Source: Bryobacterales bacterium (GTDB lineage Bacteria; Acidobacteriota; Terriglobia; Bryobacterales; UBA6623). Taken from it: a stretch of DNA of 64,000 bases. A model generated the notes under the pieces. The model saw nothing but the letters and a program-made list of their open reading frames with translations. It was not told the origin of the DNA and did not search any database. Location: contig CBDEST010000005.1 of the NCBI GenBank assembly GCA_965242625.1, positions 1,773,632-1,837,631 of the forward strand, written 5' to 3'. Positions 21,143 through 59,654 of this stretch are shown one piece after another (the stretch's first letter is position 1; every line of letters starts with the position of its first letter). The position numbers and the translations under genes are program-made.

Positions 21143-23410
21143 ATGCCGAGCACGGATCCCGGGCGGCGCGACGCCTTGCCAGTCGGCACGGTCCTGCGTG
21201 AGTTCACGATCCAAGCGGTGCTCGGGCACGGGGGCTTCGGGATCGTCTACCGGGCCGGGCACAACGAACTGGACCTGACGGTCGCGATCAAGGAATACCT
21301 GCCAGTCGAGCTGGCCGTGCGGGAAGGCACGGCCGTGCAGCCGCGGAGCGGGACGGAGCGCAAGGACTTTGAGGAGGGGCTGCGCCGGTTCCGGGACGAA
21401 GCACAAGCGCTGATCGATTTCGACAGCCATCCGAGCATCGTGTCGTGCCGGGAGTTCTTTCGGGCGCACGGGACGGCGTATCTGGTGATGGCGTACGAGG
21501 AGGGGCAGTCGCTGGCGGAAGTGCTGGCAAGCCGGGAAGCGGAGGGACGGCCGTTCGGGGCGGCGGACTTGCTGGGGGTGATGCAGCCGGTGCTGGAGGG
21601 GTTGGAGCGCGTCCACGCAGAGGGGGTGCTGCATCGGGATATCAAGCCGTCGAACATTTTGATCCGGCGACTGGACGGGCGGCCGGTGCTGATCGACTTC
21701 GGTGCGGCGAAGCAGGCCACGGCGAGATTCAGCAAGTCGCAGGCACCGTACACGGAAGGGTACGCGGCATTGGAGCAAGTGGCGGACGCAGGGAAGCTTG
21801 GTCCGTGGACGGACATGTACGGGGTGGGAGCGGTGATGTGGCGGATGGTGGCGGGCGGGAAGCGGCCGTGGGAGCCGCAGCATCCGGTGCGCGTGGAACA
21901 GCGCTCGCATGCGGTGGTAGGGGGAACGGAAGACCCGATGCCATCGGCGAGGGAGCTGGGCGAGGGTCGGTTTCCGACGCAGATGCTGGAGGTCATCGAC
22001 CGGTGCTTGCGGCTGCGTGAAGGGGAACGGATGCAAGGGTCGCGCGAGCTGCTGGAGGCTCTTCGCGAGGTGAGCGAGCTGCCACCGGTAGACGGCGCAG
22101 AGTCCGCTCGGCCGCTGGACGAGCGAACTGGATCCAAGCGACAGGAACCGGGATCGCATGCGGTGTCAACGGCTCAAGTGTCGCGAACAGGGTGGCGACG
22201 GGGTGGGTGGATTGCGCTGGCGAGTTCGATGGTCGGACTGGGGCTGGTGACTGCCACATGGTGGGGTTTCGATTCGGAGGAAACGGTACGGGATCAAGCC
22301 CCCGCTGGAGCCTCGGATGGCATTGGTGGCGAGATTGCGGTCCCGGAGCGAGGGGAGCCGGTGGATTCGGTTCCGAATCCCAACCAGCCGACAGAGAAAC
22401 CGGAGTCTCCGCCGGAAGCCGGCGGAAAGGGTCGGGATCTGGATCCGACGGGATCGGATCCAGAAGCTGAGAGCGGACGGGATGGCGAAGACAAACTTGA
22501 AGTGCGGCCGGAGGGGGCGCAGGACGGGTTCGTGGAGCCCTGGATCCGGGATTGGGATGCTTTGGGAGACATCCGAGATCCGGGATTCGCCGCGACGGCG
22601 CGGGCGTACATCGAACGGTACAAGGAGGTGCCTGAGGCGAGCGTGTGGGTAGCCAAGGCGCAAGGGCTGCTGGCCGAGCTGACGGAGTTGGCAGCAGCGA
22701 GTCCTACGCCACGCGAGGCAGGCGAGTCGTGGATGAATTCGTTAGGCATGGAGTTCGTCTGGATTCCGGTGGGGAACTTCCTGATGGGCTCACCGATGGA
22801 CGAAGCGGATCGTCTCACCGACGAGCGTCAGCATGGGGTTCGGATCAACCAGGGGTTTTGGATGAAGAAGCACGAGGTGACGCAGGGGGAGTGGGTGGCG
22901 GTGATGGGAACGAATCCATCGTATTCTTCCGATTGCGGTCCGAGGTGCCCAGTGGAACAAGTTTCTTGGGTCGACACGCAAGAGTTCACCCGGAGGTTAC
23001 ACTCGCGGGAATCCGGGAGCGGGTACGTGTACCGATTGCCAACAGAGGCGGAGTGGGAGTACGGGGCGCGGGCCGGGACAACCGGGGCGCGTTACGGGGA
23101 ATTGGACGCGATAGCGTGGCATCAGGGTAACAGCGGCGGCAGGACGCATCCGGTGGGCCAGAAGCAGGCAAACGCGTGGGGCTTGCACGACATGCTAGGA
23201 AACGTGTGGGAGTGGGTGGGAGATTGGTACGGCGTGTATCCGTCTGTTCCGGTAACGGATCCCAGAGGGCCCGAGGCGGGCTCGCGCCGGGTGGCTCGGG
23301 GCGGCGGCAGGTTCCTCAACGCGAATGGCGTTCGGTCGGCTTCTCGCTTCGGCAACTCGCCCGGCCGCCGCCACTTCTACATCGGCTTCCGCCTGGTCAG
23401 GACAGAGTGA
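21143..23410 (+). CDS. Ser/Thr protein kinase - TM - linker - FGE-sulfatase (CLec-fold) protein, array copy 1
   Basis: 755 aa. Kinase motifs: GHGGFGIVYRA, VAIKEY, HRDIKPSNILI, DFGAAK. TM helix: WIALASSMVGLGLVTATWW. FGE-sulfatase motifs: MEFVWIPVGNFLMGSP, EVTQGEWVAVMG, YRLPTEAEWEYGARAG, GNVWEWVGDWY, RGGG, IGFRLVRTE. Variable block at 23285-23383. Confidence 0.9.
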   Translation: MPSTDPGRRDALPVGTVLREFTIQAVLGHGGFGIVYRAGHNELDLTVAIKEYLPVELAVREGTAVQPRSGTERKDFEEGLRRFRDEAQALIDFDSHPSIVSCREFFRAHGTAYLVMAYEEGQSLAEVLASREAEGRPFGAADLLGVMQPVLEGLERVHAEGVLHRDIKPSNILIRRLDGRPVLIDFGAAKQATARFSKSQAPYTEGYAALEQVADAGKLGPWTDMYGVGAVMWRMVAGGKRPWEPQHPVRVEQRSHAVVGGTEDPMPSARELGEGRFPTQMLEVIDRCLRLREGERMQGSRELLEALREVSELPPVDGAESARPLDERTGSKRQEPGSHAVSTAQVSRTGWRRGGWIALASSMVGLGLVTATWWGFDSEETVRDQAPAGASDGIGGEIAVPERGEPVDSVPNPNQPTEKPESPPEAGGKGRDLDPTGSDPEAESGRDGEDKLEVRPEGAQDGFVEPWIRDWDALGDIRDPGFAATARAYIERYKEVPEASVWVAKAQGLLAELTELAAASPTPREAGESWMNSLGMEFVWIPVGNFLMGSPMDEADRLTDERQHGVRINQGFWMKKHEVTQGEWVAVMGTNPSYSSDCGPRCPVEQVSWVDTQEFTRRLHSRESGSGYVYRLPTEAEWEYGARAGTTGARYGELDAIAWHQGNSGGRTHPVGQKQANAWGLHDMLGNVWEWVGDWYGVYPSVPVTDPRGPEAGSRRVARGGGRFLNANGVRSASRFGNSPGRRHFYIGFRLVRTE

Positions 23411-23698
23411 CACTTGGTGCTATTACCCTTTCACCCTTGGGCGCGCAATGCGCGAGGAGTGCGTGCGTCGGCCAGCGAAGGTCGGAGCGAAAGCGACCGA
23501 GCCGAGCGGCAGAACGCATGCCAGGGCTTGGAGTTGTCCCTTGATTGCGGTCCGGGGCAGTCCAGCGGCGATCGGGGTCTCCGAGAGCGGAACCGCAAAA
23601 TCTTCCCTCCGGTACGCAGAGAGCTGTTGGACCAAGCTCAAGTGTCCGGTTCCGTCGGGGCCTGTGGCGTCGGCCCTTGCGTTGTGGCCGAACCCTCC

Positions 23699-25421
23699 CC
23701 TAGTTCCCGGATAAGAAATGTTTTGGACATGCTGAACACGCTTGTGTTGTAATGGTTTGCAGGGTTCCCCACGCCGCTCGTTTTTTCACCTCCGGGGTGA
23801 ATTTTCCGCGCCGGTCCGGAGCCCCGCTCACGATGCCTGCTGACAAAGCTCCCAAACTCTCTTACGGTATCTGCGACGGTCTGCTGACCGGCCTCGCCGG
23901 GCTGCCGGCGCTCGCCCGCTTGGCGCGGTCCCTCGGCCTGCCGTGGTTGCTGCAACAGTACGTCCAGATCAAGGTCCGGCAGCGCGGCTGCAGCGACGCC
24001 CAGAACCTGCTGAGCTTGATCTTCGGGCTCGCCACCGGCGGCGGGCACCTCAACACCGTCGACGCCCTGGCCGCGGACGAGGCCGCCTGCGAGGGCGCGG
24101 GGCTCGCGGGCGCCGTGCCCGACAGCCGCCGCCTCGGGGAGTACTTGACGCGCTTCAGCGCCAAGGCCCTGGACGGGTTGCAAGCCTGCGTGCGGGCGGT
24201 CAGCGCGCAAGTCGTGCCGCCGATCGCCGCCGCCTGCGGGAAGGAGCTGGGCTACGTGCCGGTGTTCATCGACGGCACGGGCATCGAGGTGCAGGGCAAG
24301 CAGTTCGAGGGCGCCGCGGTGGGCTACAACGGGGAGCGGCAGTACTGGCTGCATTCGGTGTTCGTGGGGCGGGCATGGGTCAGCGCGCGGCTGAACGAGG
24401 GCGGCACGGACGTGAAAGGGGACTTCGCCGAGCAACTGGCGGCGGACGTGGACCCGTTGGAGCTGGGGCCGGATCCGGTGTGGGCGCGTGCGGACGCGGC
24501 GTACTACTGCTGGGAGTTCGTGAAGGCCTGCACGGATCGCGGCTGGGACTACTCGGTGAGCGTGACGGACCGGAACAAGAAGGCGCCGGTGCTGCGGATC
24601 GTGGAAGCCAAGAAGTTCGCGGAAGCGGACTGGGAGCCGGTGGACGAGCGGGGCGTCGAGCGCGCGGTGACGGTCAAGTACCAGCCGAGCAAGTGGGAGG
24701 AGAAGCAAGTCTACGTGGTGATCCGGCGGGACCGGGACGGGGCGCAGGAGCTGCTGGAGCCGGTGTACACGGTGATCCTGGTCAGCCGGGACGACTTGCC
24801 GGCGGGCGAGCTGGTGCGGCGGCACCGGGCCAAGCAGGGCCAGGAGAACGCGTTCAAGGGCCCGCTGACGGAACTGGGGCTGCACCATCCGCCGTGCCAC
24901 TCGTACACGGCCAACCAAGCGTTCTACTGGTGCGGGCAGATCGCGCAGTTGCTGCTGCTGATGCTGCAATACCAGGTGCTGCCGGAGAAGGCGCGCCGGC
25001 ACGGGCTGGGGCCGCTGATCCGGGACTTCGTGCGCAGCGTGGGGCTGTTGCAGAAGCGCGGGCGGGGTCGGAAGCTGCTGTTCGGGACGTGCAACTGCCG
25101 CCTGGGCTGGCTGCTGCAGGCGGCGCAGATGGAACCGGGCTGAGGGGGCGGCGGCGGGAGCCGCCGCCACGGAACGACAGGGTAGCCCGGGCAGCTGACA
25201 GGGGAGTCGGCGGGGAGCGGTGCGCCTGCGTGGCAGGGCGGAGTGCGTGCATGGAGGCAACGAGGTCTCGAACAGCCTCCGAGACACCGGCAACCGAGTG
25301 CCGGAGACCATCCGGGGAGCCTCTCGCGCTCAGAAACTGGATCGTATACGGCCGGAGACCGGCTTGGTTAGAGCCAGATACCGGAAAATCCCGGATTGGC
25401 CAGAATTAAGCGGGGATTTGG
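23699..25421 (+). mobile_element. IS element, IS1380-family-like (1723 bp)
   Basis: It interrupts the conserved spacer. A 9-bp direct repeat GAACCCTCC flanks it (23690-23698 and 25422-25430). The ends CCTAGTTCCCGGATAAG... and ...CTTAAGCGGGGATTTGG are weakly inverted-repeat. It holds a single transposase ORF. Confidence 0.75.
23752..25143 (+). CDS. DDE transposase (IS1380/IS4-superfamily-like)
   Basis: 463-aa ORF; an alternative start MPADKAP is at 23833. N-terminal LTGLAGLPALARLARSLGL ... and C-terminal RRHRAKQGQENAFKGPLTELGLHHPPCHSYTANQAFYWCGQIAQLL fit the Y-R-E-K region of IS1380-type transposases as I recall it. Confidence 0.8.
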   Translation: MVCRVPHAARFFTSGVNFPRRSGAPLTMPADKAPKLSYGICDGLLTGLAGLPALARLARSLGLPWLLQQYVQIKVRQRGCSDAQNLLSLIFGLATGGGHLNTVDALAADEAACEGAGLAGAVPDSRRLGEYLTRFSAKALDGLQACVRAVSAQVVPPIAAACGKELGYVPVFIDGTGIEVQGKQFEGAAVGYNGERQYWLHSVFVGRAWVSARLNEGGTDVKGDFAEQLAADVDPLELGPDPVWARADAAYYCWEFVKACTDRGWDYSVSVTDRNKKAPVLRIVEAKKFAEADWEPVDERGVERAVTVKYQPSKWEEKQVYVVIRRDRDGAQELLEPVYTVILVSRDDLPAGELVRRHRAKQGQENAFKGPLTELGLHHPPCHSYTANQAFYWCGQIAQLLLLMLQYQVLPEKARRHGLGPLIRDFVRSVGLLQKRGRGRKLLFGTCNCRLGWLLQAAQMEPG

Positions 25422-25888
25422 GAACCCTCCATCGGGGCGGGCTCCCTTGCTAGGGAAAATCGGAAGCACTGGGTGCTGTCCGGGAAGCCCGCGCGCTTCG
25501 CGGGGGAGAGGCTGTGGATGGACTACGGCTTGGTACGCCTGAGGGAGCGGAAGCGTAGCTGCGCGTGAGCGAAGGTCGGATCTGGAACGAGAGCCGTGTG
25601 CGGGAAATCCCCACGCTCGGTTCAAAGAGCGGAGAACGGAAACGTAGTCAAGGTGGAGACTGAGGCACCGGCACAGGGGCGAGAGCTGTCGGAGAACTTC
25701 AACTCCCTCCATCGTCGACTAGAGTGCCTTGCTTTGGCTCCGCCTCAGAAACCCGGCGACTCCCGGGATCCGTCTCTCGCGCTGGCAGTACGCCAGCGCG
25801 GAGGCGAGCCGCTGGGGTGCGATAATCACGGCAATCGTCGGCCAGCCGCCCGCGGCCGCTAGCGGAAGCGCGGCCCAGCGATGACTCC

Positions 25889-27733
25889 ATGCCGAGCGCG
25901 GATCACGGGCGGCGCGACGCCTTGCCAGTCGGCACGGTCCTGCGGGAATTCACGATCCAAGCGGTGCTCGGACACGGGGGCTTCGGGATCGTCTACCGGG
26001 CCGGGCACAACGAACTGGAGCTGACGGTCGCGATCAAGGAATACCTGCCGGTGGAACTGGCCGTGCGGGAAGGCACGGCCGTGCAGCCGCGGAGCGGGAC
26101 GGAGCGCAAGGACTTCGAGGAAGGGCTGCGACGGTTCCGGGACGAAGCGCAAGCGCTGATCGATTTCGACAGCCATCCGAGCATCGTGTCGTGCCGGGAG
26201 TTCTTTCGGGCGCACGGGACGGCGTATCTGGTGATGGGGTACGAGGAGGGGCAGTCGCTGGCGGAACTGCTGGCAAGGCGCGAAGCGGAGGGACGGCCGT
26301 TCGCGGCGGCGGACTTGCTGGGGGTGATGCAGCCGCTGCTGGAGGGGTTGGAGCGTGTCCACGTAGCGGGGGTGCTGCATCGGGATATCAAGCCGTCGAA
26401 CATCCTGATCCGGCGGCGGGACGGGCGGCCGGTGCTGATCGACTTCGGAGCGGCGAAGCAGGCCACGGCGAGATTCAGCAAGTCGCAGGCGCCGTACACG
26501 GAGGGGTACGCGGCTTTGGAGCAAGTGGCGGACGTGGGGAAGCTGGGACCGTGGACGGACATGTACGGAGTGGGAGCGGTGATGTGGCGGATGGTGGCGG
26601 GCGGGAAGCGGCCGTGGGAGCCGCCGCATCCGGTCAGGGTGGAACAGCGCTCGCATGCGGCGTTAGGCGGAACGGAAGACCCGATGCCGTCGGCGAGGGA
26701 GTTGGGTAAGGGGCGGTTTCCGTCGCCGATGCTGGAGGTCATCGACCGGTGCTTGCGGTTGCGGGAGACGGAACGGATGCAAGGGTCGCGCGAGCTGCTG
26801 GAGGCTCTGCGCGAGGTGAGCGAGCTGCCACCGGCAGGGTCTTCAGGGGCCGCTCGGCCGCTGGCCGGGCGAACTGGAGGTAAGCGACAGGAACCGGGAT
26901 CGCATGCGGTGCCAGCACGGGCAGAGTCGCGCGCAGGGTGGCGACGGGGTGGATGGGTCGCGCTGGCGAGTTTGGTGGTCGGGCTGGGGTTAGTGGTTGC
27001 CACATGGTGGAGTTTCGGTTCTGAGGAAACGCAGCGCGAAGCAGGCGCGTCGGGGATGAATTCGCTAGGCATGGAGTTCGTCTGGATTCCGGCGGGAACC
27101 TTCCTGATGGGCTCGCCAGAGGATGAAGAGGGTCGTTTTCCCGACGAGCGTCAGCATGAGGTGCGGATCAGCGAGGGATTCTGGATAGGGAAGCACGAGG
27201 TGACGCAAGGGGAGTGGGTGGCGGTGATGGGAACGAATCCGTCGCATTTTTCCGATTGCGCTCCGCAGTGCCCCGTGGAGGAAGTGTCGTGGGACGATAC
27301 GCAGGAGTTCATACGGAGGTTGAACGGGTGGGTGTCGCGTCGTGCCTACATGTACCGGCTACCGACGGAGGCGGAGTGGGAATATGCGGCTCGGGCCGGG
27401 ACGACTGGAATCCGCCATGGGAAGTTGGACGAAATCGCGTGGCACAGAGACAATAGCGGCAATGGGACGCAGCCGGTTGGCCAGAAGCGGACTAACGCGT
27501 GGGGCTTGCACGACATGCTGGGAAACGTGTGGGAGTGGGTGGGAGACTGGTACGGCGAGTATCCGTCAGGTCCGGTGACGGATCCCGGAGGTCCCGAGTC
27601 GGGCTCGGGCCGGGTGCTTCGGGGCGGCGGCTGGAACCGCCTCGCGAGGTACGTTCGATCAGCTTCTCGCAGCAGCTCCTCGCCCGGCTACCGCAGCAGC
27701 TCCGTCGGCTTCCGCTTGGTCAGGACAGAGTGA
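25889..27733 (+). CDS. Ser/Thr kinase - TM - FGE-sulfatase protein, array copy 2 (short form lacking the acidic linker and helical segment)
   Basis: 614 aa with the same kinase and FGE motifs. The TM helix WVALASLVVGLGLVVATWW is followed almost directly by the FGE domain. Variable block at 27608-27706. Confidence 0.9.
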   Translation: MPSADHGRRDALPVGTVLREFTIQAVLGHGGFGIVYRAGHNELELTVAIKEYLPVELAVREGTAVQPRSGTERKDFEEGLRRFRDEAQALIDFDSHPSIVSCREFFRAHGTAYLVMGYEEGQSLAELLARREAEGRPFAAADLLGVMQPLLEGLERVHVAGVLHRDIKPSNILIRRRDGRPVLIDFGAAKQATARFSKSQAPYTEGYAALEQVADVGKLGPWTDMYGVGAVMWRMVAGGKRPWEPPHPVRVEQRSHAALGGTEDPMPSARELGKGRFPSPMLEVIDRCLRLRETERMQGSRELLEALREVSELPPAGSSGAARPLAGRTGGKRQEPGSHAVPARAESRAGWRRGGWVALASLVVGLGLVVATWWSFGSEETQREAGASGMNSLGMEFVWIPAGTFLMGSPEDEEGRFPDERQHEVRISEGFWIGKHEVTQGEWVAVMGTNPSHFSDCAPQCPVEEVSWDDTQEFIRRLNGWVSRRAYMYRLPTEAEWEYAARAGTTGIRHGKLDEIAWHRDNSGNGTQPVGQKRTNAWGLHDMLGNVWEWVGDWYGEYPSGPVTDPGGPESGSGRVLRGGGWNRLARYVRSASRSSSSPGYRSSSVGFRLVRTE

Positions 27734-28034: not shown

Positions 28035-28307
28035 CCAAGGAAAGTCGGAACTACCAAGAAATTCGCCAAGGGTGATCGCCGCCGCTTTCAGAGCCCGCTC
28101 GCAGACAAGATCGATGAGATACTGACGCTCTTGGAGTCCGGTGCCACCCCGGTGGAGTTGGAAGAGAATGGCTGTCAGATCCATCGACTGACCGGCGACC
28201 GCAAGGGTGCCTACGCCGTCGCGGTCTCGGCCCGCTACCGCATCGTCTTCCACTACGAGGACGGTAACGTCTATGATGTGGAAGCGGTCGACTACCGCAA
28301 GAGTTGA
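28035..28307 (+). pseudogene. higB: HigB/RelE-like toxin lacking its N-terminus and any start codon
   Basis: The open frame runs from the TAG at 28032-28034 to the TGA at 28305-28307: TKKFAKGDRRRFQSPLADKIDEILTLLESGATPVELEENGCQIHRLTGDRKGAYAVAVSARYRIVFHYEDGNVYDVEAVDYRKS. The HigB hallmarks LxGDRKG ... RIxF ... DYH/R are present. There is no ATG, GTG or TTG near the 5' end, and ~10-15 N-terminal residues present in the 18.5-kb copy are missing. Confidence 0.6.
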
Positions 28308-28321
28308 GAAAGGATGATCCA

Positions 28322-28744
28322 ATGGAACCGGACATCAACCGAGCGGATCCGCCGCCCGAGCTGTACGCCATCGACGGTGCCGTGCCGGCCGCAGTGCTCG
28401 AGGCGCACGTCGAGTGGCTGCGCCGCAACCCCATGCACCCCGGGCGGCTCATCGCCGGCACCTGCGAGCGCAAGTCTCTCAGCACGGCGGAGGCCGCTGC
28501 GCTGTTTGGCATCGCGTGCGCGGACTTGACCGAGGTGATCGAGGAACGGGCACCCGTCACGCCCGAACTCGCCCTGCGGATGGAAGCGGCAAGCTGGTTG
28601 AAGGCCGCTACTTGGATGCGTTCGCAGAGTGCCTACGATCTCGCGCAAGCGCGGAGGAGACTCGAGCGCACCGGGGCGATCCCTGCGGCGGCGGCCCCTG
28701 CACGGCAGCAAGCCAGCACCATGGAGTCCGCAGCCGCGCGCTGA
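28322..28744 (+). CDS. higA: HigA-family HTH antitoxin
   Basis: ATG at 28322 with AGGA 7 nt upstream. HPGRLIAGTCERKSLSTAEAAALFGIACADLTEVIEERAPVTPELALRMEAASW is the HTH region. It lies immediately after the higB remnant. Confidence 0.7.
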   Translation: MEPDINRADPPPELYAIDGAVPAAVLEAHVEWLRRNPMHPGRLIAGTCERKSLSTAEAAALFGIACADLTEVIEERAPVTPELALRMEAASWLKAATWMRSQSAYDLAQARRRLERTGAIPAAAAPARQQASTMESAAAR

Positions 28745-29140
28745 GCTAGCGATTCAGGCGCGACGGGGGCTGCATGGGCACCTGCGGAGAGCACACACGG
28801 CTTACCTCGCGGTGAGCCTGCCGGGCACGATCTCGTCGGAGGCCTTGGCATCCTCATCAAGGGCCGGACATGAGTGTCGCGGCAAGGATTCGCGTCCGCC
28901 ACAAGAGCACCTGCGCGGTATCCTGGCGGGCCTCAACTCGGAGATGACTCCCGGGCACCCATTGGCTGCGCGGCACGCTCGCCGCGCAGCTCGGCGGCGC
29001 ATGGACAGCGCCCCGTGGATCCAAGCCGCGGGCTAGCTGGAGCACTACGAAGAAGCTCACCGGCAGAGACCTGCGCGGCATTCCTGACCGCAACCGCCCA
29101 GACCGAGACTCCAATACACGCTCCAGCTCTATCGCGAGCT

Positions 29141-29599
29141 TCAGCGTTCGAGACGACCCAGCGATCGCGGCAAGCCCTTCTTCCGTTGGTCGCCCGCAGT
29201 TTCGTTCGCGGACATGGCGGAACCGGCAAAACCGCACCAAGCCACATAGCGTTTGCATGTGATCCATGCAACCGCTGGCAACAGCACGGCAGGAACCACC
29301 AAGTCCCCCGGCTGGCTACTCAAGATCTGCGTCTGCTGCAAAGACGCTAGCACCGCCATGAACACGAGATAAACAGTGACAGAGCGCAGGAGATCACGTT
29401 TGCTGAACGTTCTTGCGCTGTTGCGTAGTGGCGGGTTTCTGGCTAGGCCGATCTCGGCTAGCGCGACGAAGGCCACAGCCATGCAGAGCCAGAGGATCAC
29501 GTACTCGTAGCGACCCTCGGCGCTGAGTCCACACACACCAGCCAGAGCGACAGTGCCACCGCACCACGCGCACCGCTTTCCGATCCCGCTAGCACTCAC
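29141..29599 (-). CDS. integral membrane protein, hypothetical
   Basis: 152-aa ORF with ~4 hydrophobic helices (YEYVILWLCMAVAFVALAEIGL, VTVYLVFMAVLASL, LVVPAVLLPAVAWI). It overlaps the upstream gene by 11 nt and is duplicated at 37322-37780. Confidence 0.45.
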   Translation of the reverse strand: MSASGIGKRCAWCGGTVALAGVCGLSAEGRYEYVILWLCMAVAFVALAEIGLARNPPLRNSARTFSKRDLLRSVTVYLVFMAVLASLQQTQILSSQPGDLVVPAVLLPAVAWITCKRYVAWCGFAGSAMSANETAGDQRKKGLPRSLGRLER

Positions 29600-29948
29600 T
29601 GCTGCACACCGTCGTGTACGTGCATAGCGTCTCGTACGACACGCACACCAGCGAGCCTACCAAACAGGCTGGTATACCGACAATCTGACCAAAGGCCGGA
29701 ACGGCACTAAGCCAGACAGTGGATGTGGCAAGCCACAGGGCGCATCGAGTCGTCCCGTCTGCAATCTCGTCCCGGCACCTGACTTCACACCCAGAAGGCG
29801 CGTCCTCGACCGGCGCGTCCTCGCCTTGGGCTTGCGTCGGTACAACAAGCAGTGAGACGGGACAGACGAAAGCGAAACCGATCAAGCTGTGCCCGGTTAT
29901 CTCGCGCCTCCTGTGAGGCGAGGACGCCTTGCGGGGCAAGCGGTGCAT
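29589..29948 (-). CDS. small Cys-rich secreted or membrane protein, hypothetical
   Basis: 119-aa ORF with a signal-like segment (LIGFAFVCPVSLLVVPTQAQG), an acidic stretch, multiple Cys residues and a C-terminal hydrophobic segment. Duplicated at 37770-38129. Confidence 0.4.
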   Translation of the reverse strand: MHRLPRKASSPHRRREITGHSLIGFAFVCPVSLLVVPTQAQGEDAPVEDAPSGCEVRCRDEIADGTTRCALWLATSTVWLSAVPAFGQIVGIPACLVGSLVCVSYETLCTYTTVCSSEC

Positions 29949-30477: not shown

Positions 30478-30599
30478 TGAAGCACCCTGGCGCTGGCAGT
30501 ACGCCAGCGCGGAGGCGCGCCACTGGGGTGCGATAATCACGGCAATCGTCGGCCAGCCGCCCGCGGCCGCTTGCGGAAGCGCGGCCCAGCGAGGACTCC

Positions 30600-47841: not shown

Positions 47842-47845
47842 TCAA

Positions 47846-51480: not shown

Positions 51481-51526
51481 CACTGGGCGCTATTACCCTT
51501 TCACCCTCGGACGCGCGAAGTGCAAA

Positions 51527-51994
51527 GGGGCGTGCGTCAGCCAGCGAAGGCCGGAGCGAAAGCGACTGAGCCGAGCGGCAGAACGCACGCCGGGGCTTGG
51601 GGTTGTCCTTTGAGCGCGGTCTGGGGCAGTCCGGCGGCGATCGGGGTCTCCGAGAGCGGAACCGCAAATCTTCTCCTCGGTACGCAGAGAGTTGTTGGAC
51701 CAAGCTGAAATGTCCGGTTCCGTCGGGGCCTGCGGCGTCGGCCCTTGCGTTGTGGCCGCACCCTCCATCGGGGGGCTCCCTTGCTGAGGAAAATCGGAAG
51801 CACAAGGTGCAGAGCGGGAAGCCCGTGGGCTTCCCGGGGGAGAGGCTGGGGCTGGACTACGGCTTCGCATACCGGAGTGTCTGGAAGGGTAGCTTCGCGT
51901 TACCGACGGTCGGATCTTGAACGAGAGCCGAATGCGGGAAATCCGCACGCTCGGTTCGACGAGCGGGGAGGGGAAACGTAATCAAGGTGGAGAC
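51527..51994 (+). repeat. group II intron relic R7
   Basis: Contains RT domain 0-4 remnants and the intron-protein C-terminal remnant NRKHKVQSGKPVGFPGERLGLDYGF. Domain V at 51925-51957 (GAGCCGAATGCGGGAAATCCGCACGCTCGGTTC). The domain VI-like segment runs to ...GGTGGAGAC. Confidence 0.65.
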
Positions 51995-52222
51995 TGAAGA
52001 ACCGGCACGGGGGCGATAGCTGTCGGCGCACTGCTACTCCCTGCATCCTCGACAAGCGCGCCTCTCTTTGGCTTCACCTCAGAAACCCGCTGATCCGCGG
52101 GATCCGTCTCTCGCGCTGGCAGTACGCCAGCGCGGAGGTGCGCCGCTGGGGTGCGATAATCACGGCAATCGTCGGCCAGCCGCCAGCGGCCGCTTGCGGA
52201 AGCGCGGCCCAGCGATGACTCC

Positions 52223-54160
52223 ATGCCGAGCGCGGATCACGGGCGGCGCGACGCCTTGCCAGTCGGCACCGTCCTGCGCGAATTCACGATCCAGGCGGTG
52301 CTCGGACACGGGGGCTTCGGGATTGTCTACCGGGCCGGGCACAACGAACTGGACCTGACGGTCGCGATCAAGGAATACCTGCCGGTGGAATTGGCCGTGC
52401 GGGAAGGCGCGACCGTGCAGCCGCGGAGCGGGACGGAGCGCAAGGACTTCGCGGAAGGGCTGCGCCGGTTCCGGGACGAAGCGCAAGCGCTGATCGATTT
52501 CGACAGCCATCCGAGCATCGTGTCGTGCCGGGAGTTCTTTCGGGCGCACGGGACGGCGTATCTGGTGATGGGGTACGAGGAGGGGCAGTCGCTGGCGGAA
52601 GTGCTGGCGAGCCGGGAAGCGGAGGGTCGCCCGTTCGCGGCGGCGGACTTGCTGGGGGTGATGCAACCCGTGCTGGAGGGGTTGGAGCGCGTCCACGCAG
52701 AGGGGGTGCTGCATCGGGATATCAAGCCGTCGAACATTTTGATCCGGCGACTGGACGGGCGGCCGGTGCTGATCGACTTCGGTGCGGCGAAGCAGGCCAC
52801 GGCGAGATTCAGCAAGTCGCAGGCGCCGTACACGGAAGGGTACGCGGCATTGGAGCAAGTGGCGGACGCGGGGAAGCTGGGGCCGTGGACGGACATGTAC
52901 GGGGTGGGAGCGGTGATGTGGCGGATGGTGGCGGGCGGGAAGCGGCCGTGGGAGCCGCCGCATCCGGTGCGCGTGGAACAGCGCTCGCATGCGGTGGTAG
53001 GGGGAACGGAAGATCCGATGCCGTCGGCGAGGGAGTTGGGCAAGGGAAGGTTTCCGTCGCAGATGCTGGAGGTCATTGACCGGTGCTTGCGGCTGCGTGA
53101 AGGGGAACGGATGCAAGGGTCGCGCGAGCTGCTGGAGGCTCTGCGCGAGGTGAGCGAGCCACTTCCGGCAGGGTCTTCAGAGGCTGCTCGGCCGCTGGCC
53201 GAGCGAACTGGTGCCAAGCGACAGGAACCGGGATCGCATGTGGTGCCAATGGGTGCAGAGCCGCGAATGGATGGGTGGATCTCGCAGCCGTGGATCCGGG
53301 ATTGGGATGCCGTGGGAGACATCCGGGATCCGGGATTCGCCGCGACAGCGCGGGCGTACGTCGAACAGTACAAGCAAGTGGCAGAGGCGAGGGTGTGGGT
53401 GGCGAAGGCTGAGGGGCTGCTGGCCGAGCTGAGGGAGTTAGAAGCGGCGAGGGCTACGCAGCGCGAGGCAGGCGAGGCGTGGACGAATTCGTTAGGCATG
53501 GAGTTCGTCTGGATTCCGGAGGGGACCTTTCTGATGGGCTCACCGATGCACGAAGTGGGTCGATTTCTTAACGAGCGACAGCACGAGGTCCGGATCAGCG
53601 AGGGCTTTTGGATAGGGAAGTATGAGGTGACGCAAGGGGAGTGGGTAGCGGTGATGGGAACAACCCCGTCGGCGTTCTCAGATTGCGGAATGCGTTGCCC
53701 GGTCGAGAGTGTTTCGTGGGACGACACGCAGGAGTTTATTTGGAAGTTGAACTCGCGGGAATCCGGGAACGGGTACGTAAACCGATTGCCGACCGAGGCG
53801 GAGTGGGAGTACGCGGCGCGGGCGGGGACACCCGGGGCACGCTACGGCGAGTTGGGCGCGATCGCGTGGTATTTGGCAAACAGCGGCAGCAGGACGCATC
53901 CGGTAGGGCAGAAGCGGCCTAACGCGTGGGGCTTGCACGACATGCTGGGAAACGTCTGGGAGTGGACGGGAGACTGGTACGGTGAGTATCCGTCTGGTCC
54001 GGTCGCAGACCCCAAAGGTCCCGAGTCGGGCGCGGCCCGGGTGGGTCGGGGCGGCAGCTGGGACCGCAACGCGAGGCTCGTTCGGTCGGCGGTTCGCGAC
54101 TACAACTCGCCCGGCGACCGCGGCAACTACTTCGGCTTCCGCCTGGTTAGGACAGAGTGA
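52223..54160 (+). CDS. Ser/Thr kinase - FGE-sulfatase protein, array copy 8 (no TM helix, no acidic linker)
   Basis: 645 aa. The kinase is joined via ...AEPRMDGWISQPWIRDWD... directly to the helical segment and the FGE domain. Variable block at 54035-54133. Confidence 0.9.
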   Translation: MPSADHGRRDALPVGTVLREFTIQAVLGHGGFGIVYRAGHNELDLTVAIKEYLPVELAVREGATVQPRSGTERKDFAEGLRRFRDEAQALIDFDSHPSIVSCREFFRAHGTAYLVMGYEEGQSLAEVLASREAEGRPFAAADLLGVMQPVLEGLERVHAEGVLHRDIKPSNILIRRLDGRPVLIDFGAAKQATARFSKSQAPYTEGYAALEQVADAGKLGPWTDMYGVGAVMWRMVAGGKRPWEPPHPVRVEQRSHAVVGGTEDPMPSARELGKGRFPSQMLEVIDRCLRLREGERMQGSRELLEALREVSEPLPAGSSEAARPLAERTGAKRQEPGSHVVPMGAEPRMDGWISQPWIRDWDAVGDIRDPGFAATARAYVEQYKQVAEARVWVAKAEGLLAELRELEAARATQREAGEAWTNSLGMEFVWIPEGTFLMGSPMHEVGRFLNERQHEVRISEGFWIGKYEVTQGEWVAVMGTTPSAFSDCGMRCPVESVSWDDTQEFIWKLNSRESGNGYVNRLPTEAEWEYAARAGTPGARYGELGAIAWYLANSGSRTHPVGQKRPNAWGLHDMLGNVWEWTGDWYGEYPSGPVADPKGPESGAARVGRGGSWDRNARLVRSAVRDYNSPGDRGNYFGFRLVRTE

Positions 54161-54206: not shown

Positions 54207-54676
54207 GGGGCGTGCGTGAGCAAGCGAAGGCCGGAGCGAAAGCGACCGAGCCGAGCTGCGGAACGCACGCCTTGGCATGGACTGCCCGTTGATCGCGGAT
54301 CCGGGCAGTGCGGCGGCGGTCGGAGTCTCCGAGAATGCCAGATTGAATCTTCTCTTCCCTGCGGTAGGCGAAGGGCGGTTTGAGCAAAGCTGAAATGTCC
54401 GGTGCGGTCGTGGACTGCGGCTTCGGCTCTTCCGTTGCGGTCGAACCCTCCATCGGGGCTCCCTTCCTAGGGAAAAATCGGAAGCACAGGGTGCAGTCTG
54501 GGAAACCCGTGCGCTTTCCGGAGGAAAGGCTGTGCATGGACTACGGCTTGGTGCGCCAGAGTGTGGAAGCGCGGCTTTGCGTGAGTGAAGGCATGATCTT
54601 CAAGGAGAGCCGAATGCGGGAAATCCGCACGCTCGGTTCCGCGAGCGGGGAGCGGAAACGCAATCGAGGTGGAGAC
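54207..54676 (+). repeat. group II intron relic R8
   Basis: Standard unit. Domain V at 54607-54639. Confidence 0.65.
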
Positions 54677-54904
54677 TGAGGCACGGGCACGGGGGCGAGA
54701 GCTGTCGGAGAACCGCCACCCCCTCCATCCTTGACAAGCGCGCCTCTCTTTGGCTTCACCTCAGAAACCCGATGATCCGCGGGATCTGTCTCCCGCGCTG
54801 GCAGTACGCCAGCGCGAAGGCGCACCGCTGGGGTGCGATAATCACGGCAATTGTCGGCCAGCCGCCCGCGGCCGCTTGCGGAAGCGCGGCCCAGCGATGA
54901 CTCC

Positions 54905-56887
54905 ATGCCGAGCGCGGATTACGGGCGGCGCGACGCCTTGCCAGTCGGCACGGTCCTGCGGGAATTCACGATCCAAGCGGTGATCGGCCACGGGGGCTTC
55001 GGGATCGTCTACCGGGCCGGGCACAACGAACTGGAGCTGACGGTCGCGATCAAGGAATACCTGCCGGTGGAACTGGCCGTGCGCGAAGGCACGGCCGTGC
55101 AGCCGCGGAGCGGAACGGAGCGCAAGGACTTTGAGGAGGGGCTGCGCCGGTTCCGGGACGAAGCGCAAGCGCTGATCGATTTCGACAGCCATCCGAGCAT
55201 CGTGTCGTGCCGGGAGTTCTTTCGGGCGCACGGGACGGCGTATCTGGTGATGGGGTACGAGGAGGGGCAGTCGCTGGCGGAAGTGCTGGCGAGCCGGGAA
55301 GCGGAGGGTCGACCGTTCGCGGCGGCGGACTTGCTGGGGGTGATGCAGCCGGTGCTGGAGGGGTTGGAGCGCGTCCATGCAGCAGGCGTGCTGCATCGGG
55401 ATATTAAGCCGTCGAACATCCTGATCCGGCGGCGGGACGGGCGGCCGGTGCTGATTGACTTCGGAGCGGCGAAGCAGGCCACGGCCAGGTTCAGCAAGTC
55501 GCAGGCGCCGTACACGGAAGGGTACGCGGCATTGGAGCAAGTGGCGGACGCGGGGAAGCTGGGGCCGTGGACCGACATGTACGGAGTGGGAGCGGTGATG
55601 TGGCGGATGGTGGCGGGCGGGAAGCGGCCGTGGGAGCCGCCGCATCCGGTGCGCGTGGAACAGCGCTCGCATGCTGTGGTGGGCGGAACGGAAGACCCGA
55701 TGCCGTCGGCGAGGGAGCTGGGCGAGGGGAGGTTTCCGTCGCAGATGCTGGAGGTCATTGACCGATGCTTGCGATTGCGGGAAGGGGAGCGGATGCAAGG
55801 CTCGCGCGAGCTGCTGGACGCGCTTCGTGGGGTGGGCGAGCTGCCATTGGCAGGATCCACAGTAGACGCTCGGCCGTCGGCCGAGCGAACTGGTGCCAAT
55901 CGACGGGAAGCTGGGGCGCATGTGGTGCCAGTGGGTGCAGAGCCGCGAATGGATGGGTGGATCGCGCAGCCGTGGATCCGGGATTGGGACGCTCTGGGTG
56001 ACATCCGGGGTCCAGGGTTTGCCAATACGGCGCAGGCGTACATCGAACAGTACAAGCAGGTGCGTGAAGCGAGCGTGTGGGTAGCCAAGGCGGAAGGGCT
56101 ATTGGCCAAGCTGAAGGAGGTGGAAGTGGCGGGCCCTAAGCAGCGCGAGGCTGGCGAGTCGTGGATCAATTCGCTAGGCATGGAGTTCGTATGGATTCCG
56201 GCGGGGAACTTCCTGATGGGCTCACCGAAGAACGAAGAAGGTCGTGAACACCATGAGCGTCAGCACGAGGTTCGGATCAGCGAGGGCTTCTGGATAGGGA
56301 AGTACGAGGTAACGCAGGGCGAGTGGGAGGCGGTGATGGGAACGAACCCGTCTCATTTTTCCAATCGCGGCCTGCGGTGCCCGGTGGAGAGTGTGTCTTG
56401 GGACGACCTGCAGGCGTTCATACGGAGGTTGAACGAGCGCGAATCAGGGTGGGGAGTGTACCGCTTGCCGAAGTTCATACGGAGGTTGAACGGGAGTGGG
56501 CATGTTTACCGATTGCCAACGGAGGCGGAGTGGGAATACGCGGCACGGGCCGGGTCGTCCGGAATCCGCCACGGGGAGTTGGACGAAATCGCGTGGTACT
56601 CGGACAACAGCGACGATGCGACTCATCCAGTCGGCCACAAGCTGGCGAACGCGTGGGGCTTGCACGACATGCTGGGAAACATCTGGGAGTGGACGGGAGA
56701 TCGGTACGGTGAGTATCCGTTTGGTTCGGTAAGGGATCCCCGAGGTCCACGACTGGGCTCGTACCGGGTGGTTCGGGGCGGCAGCCGGGGCAGCCTCGCT
56801 AGGCACGTTCGGTCGGCGTTTCGCGACGGCAACTCGCCCGGCAACCGCAGCAGCTACATCGGCTTCCGCTTGGTCAGGACAGAGTGA
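54905..56887 (+). CDS. Ser/Thr kinase - FGE-sulfatase protein, array copy 9 (no TM helix; internal 57-bp duplication in the FGE domain)
   Basis: The homologous start MPSADYGRRD is at 54905; the track ORF opens at 54851. It has the same TM-less junction as copy 8. Tandem duplication FIRRLNERESGWGVYRLPK / FIRRLNGSGHVYRLP at 56417-56524. Variable block at 56762-56860. Confidence 0.85.
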   Translation: MPSADYGRRDALPVGTVLREFTIQAVIGHGGFGIVYRAGHNELELTVAIKEYLPVELAVREGTAVQPRSGTERKDFEEGLRRFRDEAQALIDFDSHPSIVSCREFFRAHGTAYLVMGYEEGQSLAEVLASREAEGRPFAAADLLGVMQPVLEGLERVHAAGVLHRDIKPSNILIRRRDGRPVLIDFGAAKQATARFSKSQAPYTEGYAALEQVADAGKLGPWTDMYGVGAVMWRMVAGGKRPWEPPHPVRVEQRSHAVVGGTEDPMPSARELGEGRFPSQMLEVIDRCLRLREGERMQGSRELLDALRGVGELPLAGSTVDARPSAERTGANRREAGAHVVPVGAEPRMDGWIAQPWIRDWDALGDIRGPGFANTAQAYIEQYKQVREASVWVAKAEGLLAKLKEVEVAGPKQREAGESWINSLGMEFVWIPAGNFLMGSPKNEEGREHHERQHEVRISEGFWIGKYEVTQGEWEAVMGTNPSHFSNRGLRCPVESVSWDDLQAFIRRLNERESGWGVYRLPKFIRRLNGSGHVYRLPTEAEWEYAARAGSSGIRHGELDEIAWYSDNSDDATHPVGHKLANAWGLHDMLGNIWEWTGDRYGEYPFGSVRDPRGPRLGSYRVVRGGSRGSLARHVRSAFRDGNSPGNRSSYIGFRLVRTE

Positions 56888-57635: not shown

Positions 57636-59654
57636 ATGCCGAGCGCGGATCACGGGCGGCGCGACGCCTTGCCAGTCGGCACGGTCCTGCGTGAGTTCAC
57701 GATCCAAGCGGTGCTCGGACACGGGGGCTTCGGGATCGTCTACCGGGCCGGGCACGACGAACTGGACCTGACGGTCGCGATCAAGGAATACCTGCCGGTG
57801 GAGCTGGCCGTGCGGGAAGGCACGACCGTGCAGCCGCGGAGCGGGACGGAGCGCAAGGACTTCGAGGAGGGGCTGCGACGGTTCCGGGACGAAGCGCAAG
57901 CGCTGATCGATTTCGACAGCCATCCGAGCATCGTGTCGTGCCGGGAGTTCTTTCGGGCGCACGGGACGGCGTATCTGGTGATGGGGTACGAGGAGGGGCA
58001 GTCGCTGGCGGAAGTGCTGGCGAGCCGGGAAGCGGAGGGACGACCGTTCGCGGCGGCGGACTTGCTGGAGGTGATGCGGCCGGTGCTGGAGGGGTTGGAG
58101 CGCGTCCACGCAGCGGGGGTACTGCATCGGGATATCAAGCCGTCGAACATCCTGATCCGGCGGCGGGACGGGCGGCCGGTGCTGATCGACTTCGGAGCGG
58201 CGAAGCAGGCCACGGCGAGGTTCAGCAAGTCGCAGGCGCCGTACACGGAGGGGTACGCGGCATTGGAACAAGTGGCGGACGCGGGGAAACTGGGACCGTG
58301 GACGGACATGTACGGGGTGGGAGCGGTGATGTGGCGGATGGTGGCGGGCGGGAATCCGCCGTGGGAGCCGCCGCATCCGGTGAGGGTGGAACAGCGCTCG
58401 CATGCGGCACTCGGAGGAACGGAAGATCCGATGCCGTCGGCGAGGGAGTTGGGCGAGGGTCGGTTTCCGTCGCAGATGCTGGAGGTCATCGACCGGTGCT
58501 TGCGGTTGCGGGAAGGGGAGCGGATGCAAGGCTCGCGCGAGTTGCTGGAGGCTCTTCGTGAGGTGAGCGAGTCGCTTCCGGCGGGGTCTCTGGAGGCCGC
58601 TCGGCCGTCGGCCGAGCAAACTGGAGTCAAGCGACAGGAACCGGGGTCGCATGTGGCGCCAGTAGGTGCAGAGCCGCGCACAGGGTGGCGACGGGGTGGA
58701 TGGATCGCGCTGGCGAACGTGGTGGTCGGACTGGGGCTGGTGACTGCCACATGGTGGGGTTCGCAGGACGGTTTCGTGCAGCCTTGGGTCCGGGATTGGG
58801 ATGCCTTGGATGACATCAATGCCCCTGACTTTGACCTGACGGCCCAGGCGTACATCGAACGGTACAAACAGGTGCCTGGGGCCAGCGTGTGGGTAGCCCA
58901 AGCGGAGGGGCTGTTGTCCAAGCTGAGAGACTTGGACGCGGCGAGAGCAATGCAGCGCGAGGCAGGCGAGGCGTGGGTGGATTCATTAGGCATGGAGTTC
59001 GTCTGGATTCCAGCGGGGAACTTCCTGATGGGTTCTCCGGAGGACGAAGAGGGTCGTTTCCCCAATGAGCGTCAACACGAGGTGCGGATCAGCGAGGGGT
59101 TCTGGATTGGGAAGTACGAGGTGACCCAAGGGGAGTGGGAGGCGGTGATGGGAACGAACCCGTCGCATTTTTCCGATTGCGGTCCGCGGTGCCCAGTAGA
59201 GGAAGTGTCTTGGGTCGATACGCAGGAGTTCATACGGAGGGTGAACTCGCGGCAATCCGGGAGGGGGTACTTCTATCGATTGCCGACAGAGGCGGAGTGG
59301 GAGTACGGGGCGCGGGCGGGGACGCCCGGGGCGCACTACGGCGAGTTGGACATGATCGCGTGGTATTCGGCGAACAGCGGCAGGAGGACGCATCCGGTAG
59401 GGCAGAAGCGGCCTAACGCGTGGGGCTTGCATGACATGCTGGGAAACGTGTGGGAGTGGACGGGAGACTGGTACGGCGCGTATCCGTCTGGTGCGGTGAC
59501 GGATCCCGGAGGTTCCGAGTCGGGCTCGCTCCGGGTGGATCGGGGCGGCGGCTGGGGCGGCTACGCGGGAAGCGTTCGGTCGGCTAGTCGCCGCCACCGC
59601 TCGCCCGGCTTCCGTGGCGGCTTCATCGGCTTCCGCTTGGTCATGACAGAGTGA
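57636..59654 (+). CDS. Ser/Thr kinase - TM - FGE-sulfatase protein, array copy 10 (TM present, acidic linker deleted)
   Basis: 672 aa. ...LVTATWWGSQDGFVQPWVRDWD... marks the deletion junction. Variable block at 59529-59627. Confidence 0.9.
   Translation: MPSADHGRRDALPVGTVLREFTIQAVLGHGGFGIVYRAGHDELDLTVAIKEYLPVELAVREGTTVQPRSGTERKDFEEGLRRFRDEAQALIDFDSHPSIVSCREFFRAHGTAYLVMGYEEGQSLAEVLASREAEGRPFAAADLLEVMRPVLEGLERVHAAGVLHRDIKPSNILIRRRDGRPVLIDFGAAKQATARFSKSQAPYTEGYAALEQVADAGKLGPWTDMYGVGAVMWRMVAGGNPPWEPPHPVRVEQRSHAALGGTEDPMPSARELGEGRFPSQMLEVIDRCLRLREGERMQGSRELLEALREVSESLPAGSLEAARPSAEQTGVKRQEPGSHVAPVGAEPRTGWRRGGWIALANVVVGLGLVTATWWGSQDGFVQPWVRDWDALDDINAPDFDLTAQAYIERYKQVPGASVWVAQAEGLLSKLRDLDAARAMQREAGEAWVDSLGMEFVWIPAGNFLMGSPEDEEGRFPNERQHEVRISEGFWIGKYEVTQGEWEAVMGTNPSHFSDCGPRCPVEEVSWVDTQEFIRRVNSRQSGRGYFYRLPTEAEWEYGARAGTPGAHYGELDMIAWYSANSGRRTHPVGQKRPNAWGLHDMLGNVWEWTGDWYGAYPSGAVTDPGGSESGSLRVDRGGGWGGYAGSVRSASRRHRSPGFRGGFIGFRLVMTE

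Follow-up and report, generated by a model that had tools for sequence, protein, structure and literature searches.

A tandem array of eleven kinase-lectin genes with DGR-type variable regions in a defence island of a Bryobacterales bacterium

In a 64,000-nucleotide (nt) stretch of a Bryobacterales chromosome (contig CBDEST010000005.1, positions 1,773,632 to 1,837,631; hereafter the window), eleven gene copies (c1 to c11) that join an N-terminal Hanks-type kinase to a C-terminal FGE-sulfatase domain that shows the fold of C-type lectins (CLec) follow each other head to tail on the plus strand, spanning positions 21143-61416. The lectin domains end in variable regions (VRs) that carry the substitution signature of a diversity-generating retroelement (DGR), and the array lies in a defence island. 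We consider it likely, with a probability of roughly 0.6, that the copies form a tandem receptor-kinase family whose VRs are written by a DGR acting in trans and that they are sensors of phages or competitors.

The repeat unit consists of a 2.29-kb gene and a conserved spacer of about 0.74 kb, resulting in a period of 3.03 kb for the full copies and of 2.65-2.73 kb for the shorter ones, in agreement with the eleven co-oriented copies and the period of about 2.6-3.0 kb described in the original prediction, which had been made from the sequence alone. Every unit was recovered within the window by blastn with one gene end or one spacer, and Pfam assigned an N-terminal Pkinase (E = 1e-35) and a C-terminal FGE-sulfatase domain (E = 1e-41 to 1e-43) to every copy tested. 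The copies diverge pairwise by 5-20%, and the spacers share about 80-86% mutual identity. Only eight copies are intact (c1, c2, c3, c4, c7, c8, c9, and c10), and c5, c6, and c11 are damaged. The earlier copy list was correct in its number, and it had counted c5, a pseudogene at present, among the full forms.

The VR comprises the final 114 nt (38 codons) of the ligand-binding domain before an invariant 18-nt tail (..TTGGTCAGGACAGAGTGA) that follows the last variable codon, and the array contains ten distinct VRs. In DGR targets, an initiation-of-mutagenic-homing (IMH) site would be expected at this 3' end of the VR. The DGR signature was tested by comparing the VRs only with each other and not with a template repeat (TR). 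Thirty of the 114 columns are hypervariable, and they fall on codon position 1 (n = 16), position 2 (n = 13), and position 3 (n = 1), in codons that nearly always end in C (NNC). Third positions are variable in 12 of the 38 VR codons, as compared to 65 of 95 codons in the 330 nt just upstream (Fisher p = 1.7e-4). The mean pairwise identity is 0.29 at the hypervariable columns, which is essentially random, and 0.935 at the 84 scaffold columns; the flanks of the VR have values of 0.83 (upstream) and 0.79 (downstream). The nonsynonymous (dN) and synonymous (dS) divergences of the VR are 0.37 and 0.10 (dN/dS 3.7), and those of the adjoining FGE sequence are 0.12 and 0.46 (dN/dS 0.26), which corresponds to a five-fold lower synonymous divergence in the VR than in its flank among the intact copies. 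This low dS of the VR indicates that it was overwritten from a common template after the domains had diverged, and in combination with the random first and second positions of the NNC codons it is the pattern of mutagenic retrohoming from a shared AAC-rich template. Judged by this pattern, the VRs are variable regions of the DGR type, as neither protein-level selection nor gene conversion would be expected to leave it.

When A is restored at the variable columns, a TR can be inferred from the VRs (GGCTCGAACCGGGTGAATCGGGGCGGCGGCTGGAACAACAACGCGAGGAACGTTCGGTCGGCTAATCGCAACAACAACTCGCCCGGCAACCGCAACAACAACATCGGCTTCCGC). A metagenome scan with a first TR pattern gave no matches. A scan with part of the inferred TR returned over 120 sequences that are canonical DGR TRs and share its scaffold, and several of these adjoin canonical DGR reverse transcriptases (RTs); the closest of them agreed at 110 of 132 positions, and none was cognate. 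The fold is also that of DGR targets, namely an FGE-sulfatase/C-type lectin domain with the VR at its C-terminus, and with c8 as query the closest solved structure by sequence was TvpA (2Y3C, E = 2e-30), a DGR variable protein of Treponema denticola, which ranked ahead of true FGEs. One alternative for the origin of the variability is diversifying selection together with gene conversion among the members, without any retroelement. Gene conversion does operate here, as can be seen from the lower dS of the kinase halves (0.165) in comparison to the FGE halves (0.46) and from the mosaic identity to a related array described below, and neither a DGR-type RT nor a TR was found in the window or at the related loci. 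However, selection and conversion would not keep third positions as C while randomising positions 1 and 2, they would not depress synonymous change inside the VR, and they would not reproduce the scaffold of genuine DGR TRs. We therefore regard this explanation as highly improbable.

The kinase to which the variable domain is fused is strongly conserved and, by its motifs, a catalytically complete Hanks-type enzyme. In the protein alignment, the motifs GHGGFGIVY, VAIKEY, HRDIKPSN, and DFG (corresponding to GxGxxG, VAIK, HRD, and DFG) are invariant in all copies, and the domain shows 94% nucleotide identity among copies with a dN/dS of 0.15. The predicted wiring of a hypervariable FGE domain to a conserved kinase is thereby borne out.

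Protein alignment divided the copies into exactly the four structural classes that had been proposed. In the full form, represented by c1, c3, c4, c7, and by c5 prior to the insertion of a mobile element, the kinase is followed by a transmembrane (TM) helix, an acidic linker, a helical segment, and the FGE/CLec domain. Copy c2 is without the linker and the helical segment, c10 is without the linker only, and c8 and c9 are without the TM helix and the linker, with the sequence ...EPRMDGWIS/AQPWIRDWD... at that place. The TM helix was assigned solely by the Kyte-Doolittle hydropathy scale with a 19-residue window, which detected a single hydrophobic segment (GGWIALASLVVGLGLVLATWW) at residues 354-374 of c1-c5, c7, and c10, with 19-residue means of 1.4-2.0. 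This segment is preceded by 3-5 Lys or Arg residues on the N-terminal side and followed by acidic residues. According to the positive-inside rule, these flanking charges fit a cytoplasmic kinase and an extracytoplasmic lectin domain, which is the topology of bitopic receptor kinases with one TM helix between kinase and sensor. The hydropathy of c8 and c9 does not exceed 1.07, and as there is no TM-like segment, the whole protein should be cytoplasmic in these two cases. Presence of the helix in the full forms and its absence from c8 and c9 had both been anticipated. The structure prediction that had been suggested for the two forms added nothing on the fold: the AlphaFold2 model of the TM-less c8 is poor overall (mean predicted local distance difference test score, pLDDT, 57.6), and its three-helix segment at residues 356-409 is confident.

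At the nucleotide level, all deletion junctions are in frame. One junction is common to c8 and c9, which indicates a single event that was later duplicated, and 3-nt microhomologies are found at the junctions of c10 (TCG) and c2 (ACG). As it was in principle possible that the length classes were artefacts of assembly collapse or expansion, a risk that exists generically for all tandem repeats, we considered the respective evidence. The copies are 5-20% divergent, each VR is unique, every junction preserves the frame, and the source is a single 6.73-Mb contig. In addition, an independent assembly with a syntenic locus (L081, about 95% identical in the flank) encodes a 660-aa protein with the identical TM-less junction (EPRMDGWIAQPWIRDWD), so an artefact of assembly does not account for this class; analogous variants occur in other assemblies as well. 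The artefact explanation, which had been named as a condition that would overturn the class assignment, thus has a probability close to zero.

The database search for the same architecture, which had been recommended, identified 1,664 homologues at E < 1e-30, of which 127 cluster representatives were classified by their modules. A TM helix together with the helical segment is present in 61 of the 127 (51 with and 10 without a C-terminal GFR[LVI] motif), a TM helix without the helical segment in 30 (26 with and 4 without the motif), and the helical segment without a TM helix in 16 (14 and 2, respectively). Another 18 are long forms; 17 of these contain two helical segments, and the other, P0010 (900 aa), carries a pair of lectin domains separated by the helical segment. 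The remaining two have neither TM helix nor helical motif. The same array pattern is present in several related genomes, where variants are mixed as well: at least six genes in L080, five in L082, eight in L081 and L204 together, and at least three in L206. TM-less forms, forms without the helical segment, forms with a short linker, and forms with a doubled module recur in other genomes with different junctions, and L082 contains an independent TM-less copy whose junction differs. The classes are therefore a recurrent trait of the family and not one-off deletions peculiar to this array, which refines the earlier proposal of clean in-frame deletions.

The comparison to L081 also shows how such arrays change. 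The first L081 gene has a c1-like N-terminus joined to the C-terminus of c9, with the FGE half of c9 being 99-100% identical to it, and the segment identity of our array to L081 is a mosaic that ranges from 64% to 100%. This mosaic and the greater homogeneity of the kinase halves in comparison to the FGE halves indicate that unequal crossing-over and gene conversion keep remodelling the array. Among species representatives, the closest full-length match is 66% identical and comes from a metagenome-assembled genome (MAG) labelled Bryobacterales, and kinase-only matches come from MAGs labelled Rhodothermales. The source chromosome contains at least two further paralogs outside the window, the divergent TM-less P0100 (660 aa) and the short TM form P0244 (606 aa).

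Several results count against a family of sensors that is rewritten in trans, and a first group of them concerns the retroelement. No DGR-type RT or Avd was detected in the 64-kb window by Pfam searches of the large open reading frames (ORFs), by inspection of the window end in all six frames, or by tblastn searches for which four DGR RTs served as queries. No TR was found in it by scans for AAC runs or by blastn with a VR and with the inferred TR, which matched only the ten VRs, and none of these is itself the template, as no VR has A at all variable columns. Likewise, stretches of about 20 kb around six related loci contained no DGR RT, Avd, or TR, and only VRs matched. These searches covered the 64 kb of the window, out of a chromosome of 6.7 Mb, and the stretches at the related loci. 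An RT with a similar TR (L180) had no match on the source contig or the contigs of the relatives among the best 120 matches, and the orthologues of the divergent paralog P0100 do not adjoin a DGR. Large RTs that lie beside the arrays in L080 and L206 were considered as the missing enzyme and rejected, since they are DRT1/UG5 RT-nitrilases with no TR nearby. These two defence genes (L080 15604-19023, minus strand; L206 8668-12486, plus strand) are 64% identical to each other. The one in L080 has the last intact copy on one side and a degraded terminal copy (~20310-20480) on the other, indicating that it was inserted into the array. To the same group belong the 3-6 non-adenine scaffold changes in the VRs of c1, c5, c9, and c11, which suggest that some copies are perhaps no longer rewritten, and the only clear orthologous VR pair, c9 and L081 gene 1. 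The identity of these two VRs extends over the entire 1.2 kb around them, and the pair therefore gives no direct sign of recent diversification. As a test of recent change confined to the VR, the L081 orthologues were of no use, since near-identity holds along the full c9 segment and the remaining pairs are mosaic or diverge over the entire FGE domain.

With neither a DGR RT nor a TR in the window or beside the related arrays, the copies are either remote targets under diversification in trans or orphans whose element has been lost. In the latter case, the retroelement would have disappeared or ceased to act on this array, and the copies would be fossil targets, a frozen repertoire whose only sources of change are duplication, recombination, and point mutation. 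The failed searches, the scaffold decay in four copies, and the identity of the c9 VR in two strains all agree with this idea. Loss of templating does occur in the family, as the VR scaffold of the single-copy homologue L205 (812 aa, 10001-12439) has drifted, with about a dozen changes that include third positions. However, L205 also shows what lost templating looks like, in contrast to the well-kept scaffolds of the array, whose identity of 0.935 requires templated overwriting after the paralogs had diverged. The VR dS of 0.10 in the intact copies, far below the 0.46 of the flanking FGE sequence, leads to the same conclusion, and remote targets more than 100 kb from their RT are documented for non-phage DGRs (PMC5758913, PMC7517822). 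We thus consider the fossil scenario unlikely, though it deserves attention, and favour copies that are served in trans and whose diversification may be ongoing.

With regard to function, the window is a defence island with type IIG-like methyltransferases, a HEC-01A-like ATPase, a type II restriction-modification (RM) system, a PD-Lambda-2_B-like protein, HigBA, and a SIR2-STAND gene. Related arrays are flanked by DRT1, AbiJ, AbiTii, Pycsar, and insertion sequence (IS) elements, and the TM-less singleton L203 adjoins Schlafen/AlbA, AbiEi, and MmeI-type genes. The second group of opposing results concerns this side. The kinase matches the PADLOC profiles mad6 (1e-46) and PD-T4-6 (1e-41) over the generic kinase core only, and the score against NCBIfam MAD6 is 116 bits at a cut-off of 460. 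No MADS or BREX partner genes were identified. Membership in the PD-T4-6, MADS MAD6, or BREX PglW systems was therefore rejected. In addition, the singleton L205 is found among housekeeping genes, with an ECF sigma factor as its neighbour, so that a role in defence does not extend to the whole family.

It is in this context conceivable, although we doubt it, that the copies are ordinary kinases of environmental or developmental signalling, whose lectin domains tune the recognition of self or environmental ligands or of substrates, and that their location in the island is incidental. Such a tuning of regulatory pathways was proposed for the cyanobacterial counterparts (PMC7517822). It would agree with the low-scoring matches to defence kinases and with the existence of non-hypervariable single-copy homologues in housekeeping contexts, by the ECF sigma factor (L205) or by metabolic genes (L003). 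An incidental location could result from the fact that arrays and islands both accumulate in recombination-prone regions. On the other hand, all five array loci examined (5/5) and the singleton L203 are embedded in defence genes, and defence cassettes (SIR2-STAND, DRT1, and HigBA) are inserted into the arrays themselves. Most likely, the array would detect foreign molecules, both extracellular and intracellular, by hypervariable sensors that are coupled to phosphorylation, an assignment based on guilt by association and on the analogy to the DGR targets of conflict systems, which have been proposed to be 'antigen sensors' (PMC10907252). Of the diversified sensing repertoire that had been envisaged, hypervariability and the coexistence of membrane and TM-less forms are confirmed, and we infer sensing as such and, with no RT or TR in the window, active diversification.

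The mechanism that we propose for the trans-served family is as follows. A DGR RT would copy a TR rich in AAC codons and misincorporate at adenines, and the resulting cDNA would overwrite the VR, which would leave one shared scaffold and, in each copy, a different set of about 15 randomised residues on the binding face of the lectin fold. The retroelement would serve the copies in trans from elsewhere on the 6.7-Mb chromosome, unless it has since been lost. The array itself would grow and be reshuffled by unequal crossing-over and gene conversion, with the kinase halves being homogenised, and in-frame deletions and duplications at short microhomologies in the juxtamembrane region would generate sensor variants, namely sensors that face outward from a long or a short stalk and cytoplasmic sensors with no TM helix. 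Together, they would most likely constitute a repertoire of hypervariable sensors for foreign (phage or competitor) molecules, with phosphorylation as the signal. An extension of this mechanism, which we put forward tentatively and hold to be rather unlikely in its entirety, is a working repertoire of two layers, in which eleven germline paralogs with different stalk lengths, facing the periplasm or residing in the cytoplasm as two compartments, are combined with hypermutation by one remote DGR and trigger defence via their kinases. If this applied, bacteria would have in this locus a counterpart to antigen-receptor loci with multiple hypermutating genes, with somatic-like hypermutation of every copy, and a near-invariant element in the 3' flank would act as the address tag through which a single retroelement reaches all copies in trans.

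This 3' flank is present after every copy (for example 51481-51595 on the plus strand, behind c7). It contains a short GC hairpin at +31 to +45 after the stop codon and a 9-bp inverted repeat that encloses a near-invariant core of about 45 nt at +51 to +111. In other terms, a non-coding element of about 65 nt, GGCGTGCGT...AGCGAAGGCCGGAGCGAAAGCGACCGAGCCGAGCGGC...ACGCACGCC, extends from +50 to +115 after every stop codon (e.g., 51530-51595). It is near-invariant in 20 copies from four assemblies (it also occurs in L080, L081, L082, and L204), despite diverged third positions in the coding sequence. In the flank hairpins, 84% of the cells are paired with essentially no covariation, the sequence being too conserved for it. 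The element is a candidate for an addressing element in trans retrohoming.

Kinase-CLec fusions as DGR targets were mentioned in the original prediction as reported from cyanobacteria, and the precedent is real: cyanobacterial genomes contain multiple such paralogs, many of them far from the RT, in cytosolic and TM forms (Vallota-Eastman et al., 2020; PMC7517822). Like our copies, these variable proteins have a Hanks kinase followed by an FGE-type C-type lectin domain with a C-terminal VR. Unlike them, the copies described here form one co-oriented tandem array of eleven units with a 0.74-kb spacer in a defence island and have no RT or TR in cis, and the relatives retrieved come from MAGs labelled Acidobacteriota or Rhodothermales. 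In Thiohalocapsa PB-PSB1 and other multicellular bacteria, DGR-diversified putative antigen sensors occur in conflict systems (Doré et al., 2024; PMC10907252). Those loci resemble ours in that CLec VRs are fused to conflict or signalling domains (including one Pkinase target), in that they have no RT/TR of their own and are diversified in trans, in that transposons reshape the loci, and in that sensors are predicted in both cytoplasm and periplasm. They differ in having one to few targets each, mostly STAND NTPases or vWA-MoxR, whereas here one kinase architecture is amplified eleven-fold in tandem with no NTPase or protease partner evident (PMC10907252).

TvpA (2Y3C) has the same FGE-type CLec fold and likewise carries its VR at the C-terminus, and in T. 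denticola one DGR serves seven non-adjacent targets (PMC5758913, PMC4891356). The TvpA-type targets are dispersed lipoproteins without kinase, unlike the tandem kinase fusions analysed here. A 2018 survey, which includes one kinase-containing target architecture, lists seven as the largest remote set and eight as the largest tandem target set, the latter belonging to a DGR of Stenotrophomonas sp. (Wu et al., 2018; PMC5758913), so the impression that an array of eleven is unusual was correct. The Stenotrophomonas set contains only five unique VRs, and its authors suspected an assembly error (PMC5758913); it is part of a cassette with its own RT and TR, unlike the present array of kinase fusions with its ten distinct VRs and no cassette. 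In their bitopic organisation, in which a single TM helix connects a Hanks kinase in the cytoplasm to an extracytoplasmic sensor, the TM forms resemble PknB/Stk1-type receptor kinases, from which they differ by having a hypervariable CLec domain in place of PASTA or other sensor domains. Regarding the kinases of phage defence (Stk2, PD-T4-6, and MADS MAD6), the PD-T4-6 and mad6 profiles match the generic core only. In summary, the literature already covers DGR targets of the kinase-CLec type, remote paralogs, tandem sets of up to eight targets, TM and cytosolic variants, and trans-acting loci. Different here are the eleven tandem units with ten VRs and the recurrence of such arrays in several related genomes, the mixture of stalk and TM variants, the lack of a cassette in cis, the setting in a defence island, and the non-cyanobacterial lineage.

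DGR-diversified fusions of lectin and signalling or conflict domains have been proposed to be bacterial antigen sensors, and to our knowledge neither the ligand nor the output is known for any of them. The locus is a compact natural experiment in this respect, with ten VRs on one kinase chassis in natural TM and TM-less versions that recur in relatives. It could show whether one retroelement services many remote targets, which cis element addresses them, and whether sensing takes place inside or outside the cell, and it would extend the kinase-CLec DGR targets beyond the cyanobacteria and into defence islands. If the DGR were absent, the locus would still be a record of how a module that was hypermutated in the past persists and is reshuffled in a fixed repertoire.

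The individual copies, all on the plus strand, are arranged as follows. The array is preceded by a leading copy of the inter-gene spacer (20454-21142), to which the c3-c4 spacer is 80% identical over 698 nt by blastn. Copy c1 (21143-23410, VR 23279-23392) is a full form of 755 aa with weaker TM hydropathy (1.37) and four scaffold deviations in its VR, including the loss of a conserved Trp. It is followed by c2 (25889-27733, 614 aa, VR 27602-27715), in which the TM helix is present and the linker and helical segment are deleted, and by the full forms c3 (30600-32888, 762 aa, TM codons ~31659-31721, VR 32757-32870) and c4 (33629-35911, 760 aa, VR 35780-35893). The c3 product is 100% identical to a database protein (P0001) encoded on a 6,733,009-bp contig. 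The full-form c5 (38781-42858) is split by an IS-like element into two parts, 38781-40391 and 42176-42858, and its VR (42727-42840) has six scaffold deviations. Sequence comparison showed that c6 (43608-44684) is truncated, with the kinase continuing to about residue 308 and the remainder replaced. The next copies are c7 (49195-51480, full form, 761 aa, VR 51349-51462) and the TM-less c8 (52223-54160, 645 aa, VR 54029-54142), which consists of kinase, helical segment, and FGE/CLec domain. The TM-less c9 (54905-56887, 660 aa, VR 56756-56869) has the c8 junction, and the conserved Trp is absent from its VR. An in-frame internal duplication of 45 nt (FIRRLNERESGWGVYRLPK / FIRRLNGSGHVYRLP) lies in the FGE domain of c9, at window positions 56300-56400, and the same sequence occurs in L081 gene 1. 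Copy c10 (57636-59654, 672 aa, VR 59523-59636) has the TM helix, and only its acidic linker is deleted. The terminal degraded copy c11 (60287-61416, VR 61285-61398), with the N-terminus of the kinase, an internal deletion, and a frameshifted FGE domain, falls just past the end coordinate (59654) of the array as first described.

Six spacers contain plus-strand matches to group II intron domains V-VI (25589-25708, 33319-33448, 43308-43427, 51923-52042, 54605-54724, and 59990-60109; Rfam RF00029, 28-47 bits at a cut-off of 40). L081 has the match as well, and the 390-bp spacers of L080 and L082 lack it. In the six spacers, no match to a D1-D4 model, no conserved GUGYG at a plausible 5' end, and no intron ORF were detected. 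The view that the spacer is a complete ORF-less group II intron was rejected, as its apparent GTGCG start belongs to a flank element that also occurs in lineages without domain V; a fold energy no better than that of shuffled sequence likewise speaks against it. The matches probably represent the relic of an intron truncated at its 5' end, which was duplicated together with the array unit. Simple promoter and terminator scans of the spacers gave nothing above background.

The array is interrupted by several inserted elements. An IS1380-family insertion (23699-25421, plus strand; transposase 23752-25143, Pfam DDE_Tnp_1_4 and NCBIfam IS1380) splits the c1-c2 spacer into halves at 23416-23698 and 25422-25888. 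A 2.4-kb insert in the c2-c3 spacer (28051-30489), recognised from its sequence and by Pfam/NCBIfam, comprises a HigB fragment (28131-28307), HigA (28304-28744), and an ankyrin-repeat gene on the minus strand. A second copy in the c4-c5 spacer (36236-38670) indicates segmental duplication of a gene-plus-insert block, and L081 carries the same insert. The IS-like element in c5 (40392-42175, 1.78 kb) has 17-bp terminal inverted repeats (ATGAGCCTGAACGAGGG) and a minus-strand ORF of about 430-470 aa, for which no Pfam or NCBIfam match was found. A gene for a SIR2/novel STAND NTPase 5 protein (44850-47321, minus strand) lies in a cassette of low GC content (44685-48894, GC 0.52-0.55, as compared to about 0.64 for the window), which has taken the place of c6's C-terminal half and of a portion of the spacer and looks like a recently acquired defence gene inserted in the array.

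Upstream of the array, two tandem paralogous N6-adenine methyltransferases of about 1,000 aa (Eco57I/MmeI-like, type IIG-like) are encoded 1.1 kb apart on the plus strand (2186-5161 and 6261-9428). They are followed by a HEC-01A-like AAA ATPase (11004-12359), by a type II methyltransferase/restriction endonuclease pair (14739-16885, minus strand), and, directly before the array, by a PD-Lambda-2_B-like protein with helix-turn-helix (HTH) and M78 peptidase domains (18912-20678, minus strand) that is syntenic in L081. Just after the array, an ORF of more than 600 aa with a P-loop (GPNGSGKS) occupies positions 62197-63999 on the plus strand in a segment with a GC content of 0.48 and runs off the window end; by these features, it is probably another acquired defence gene of the ATPase type.

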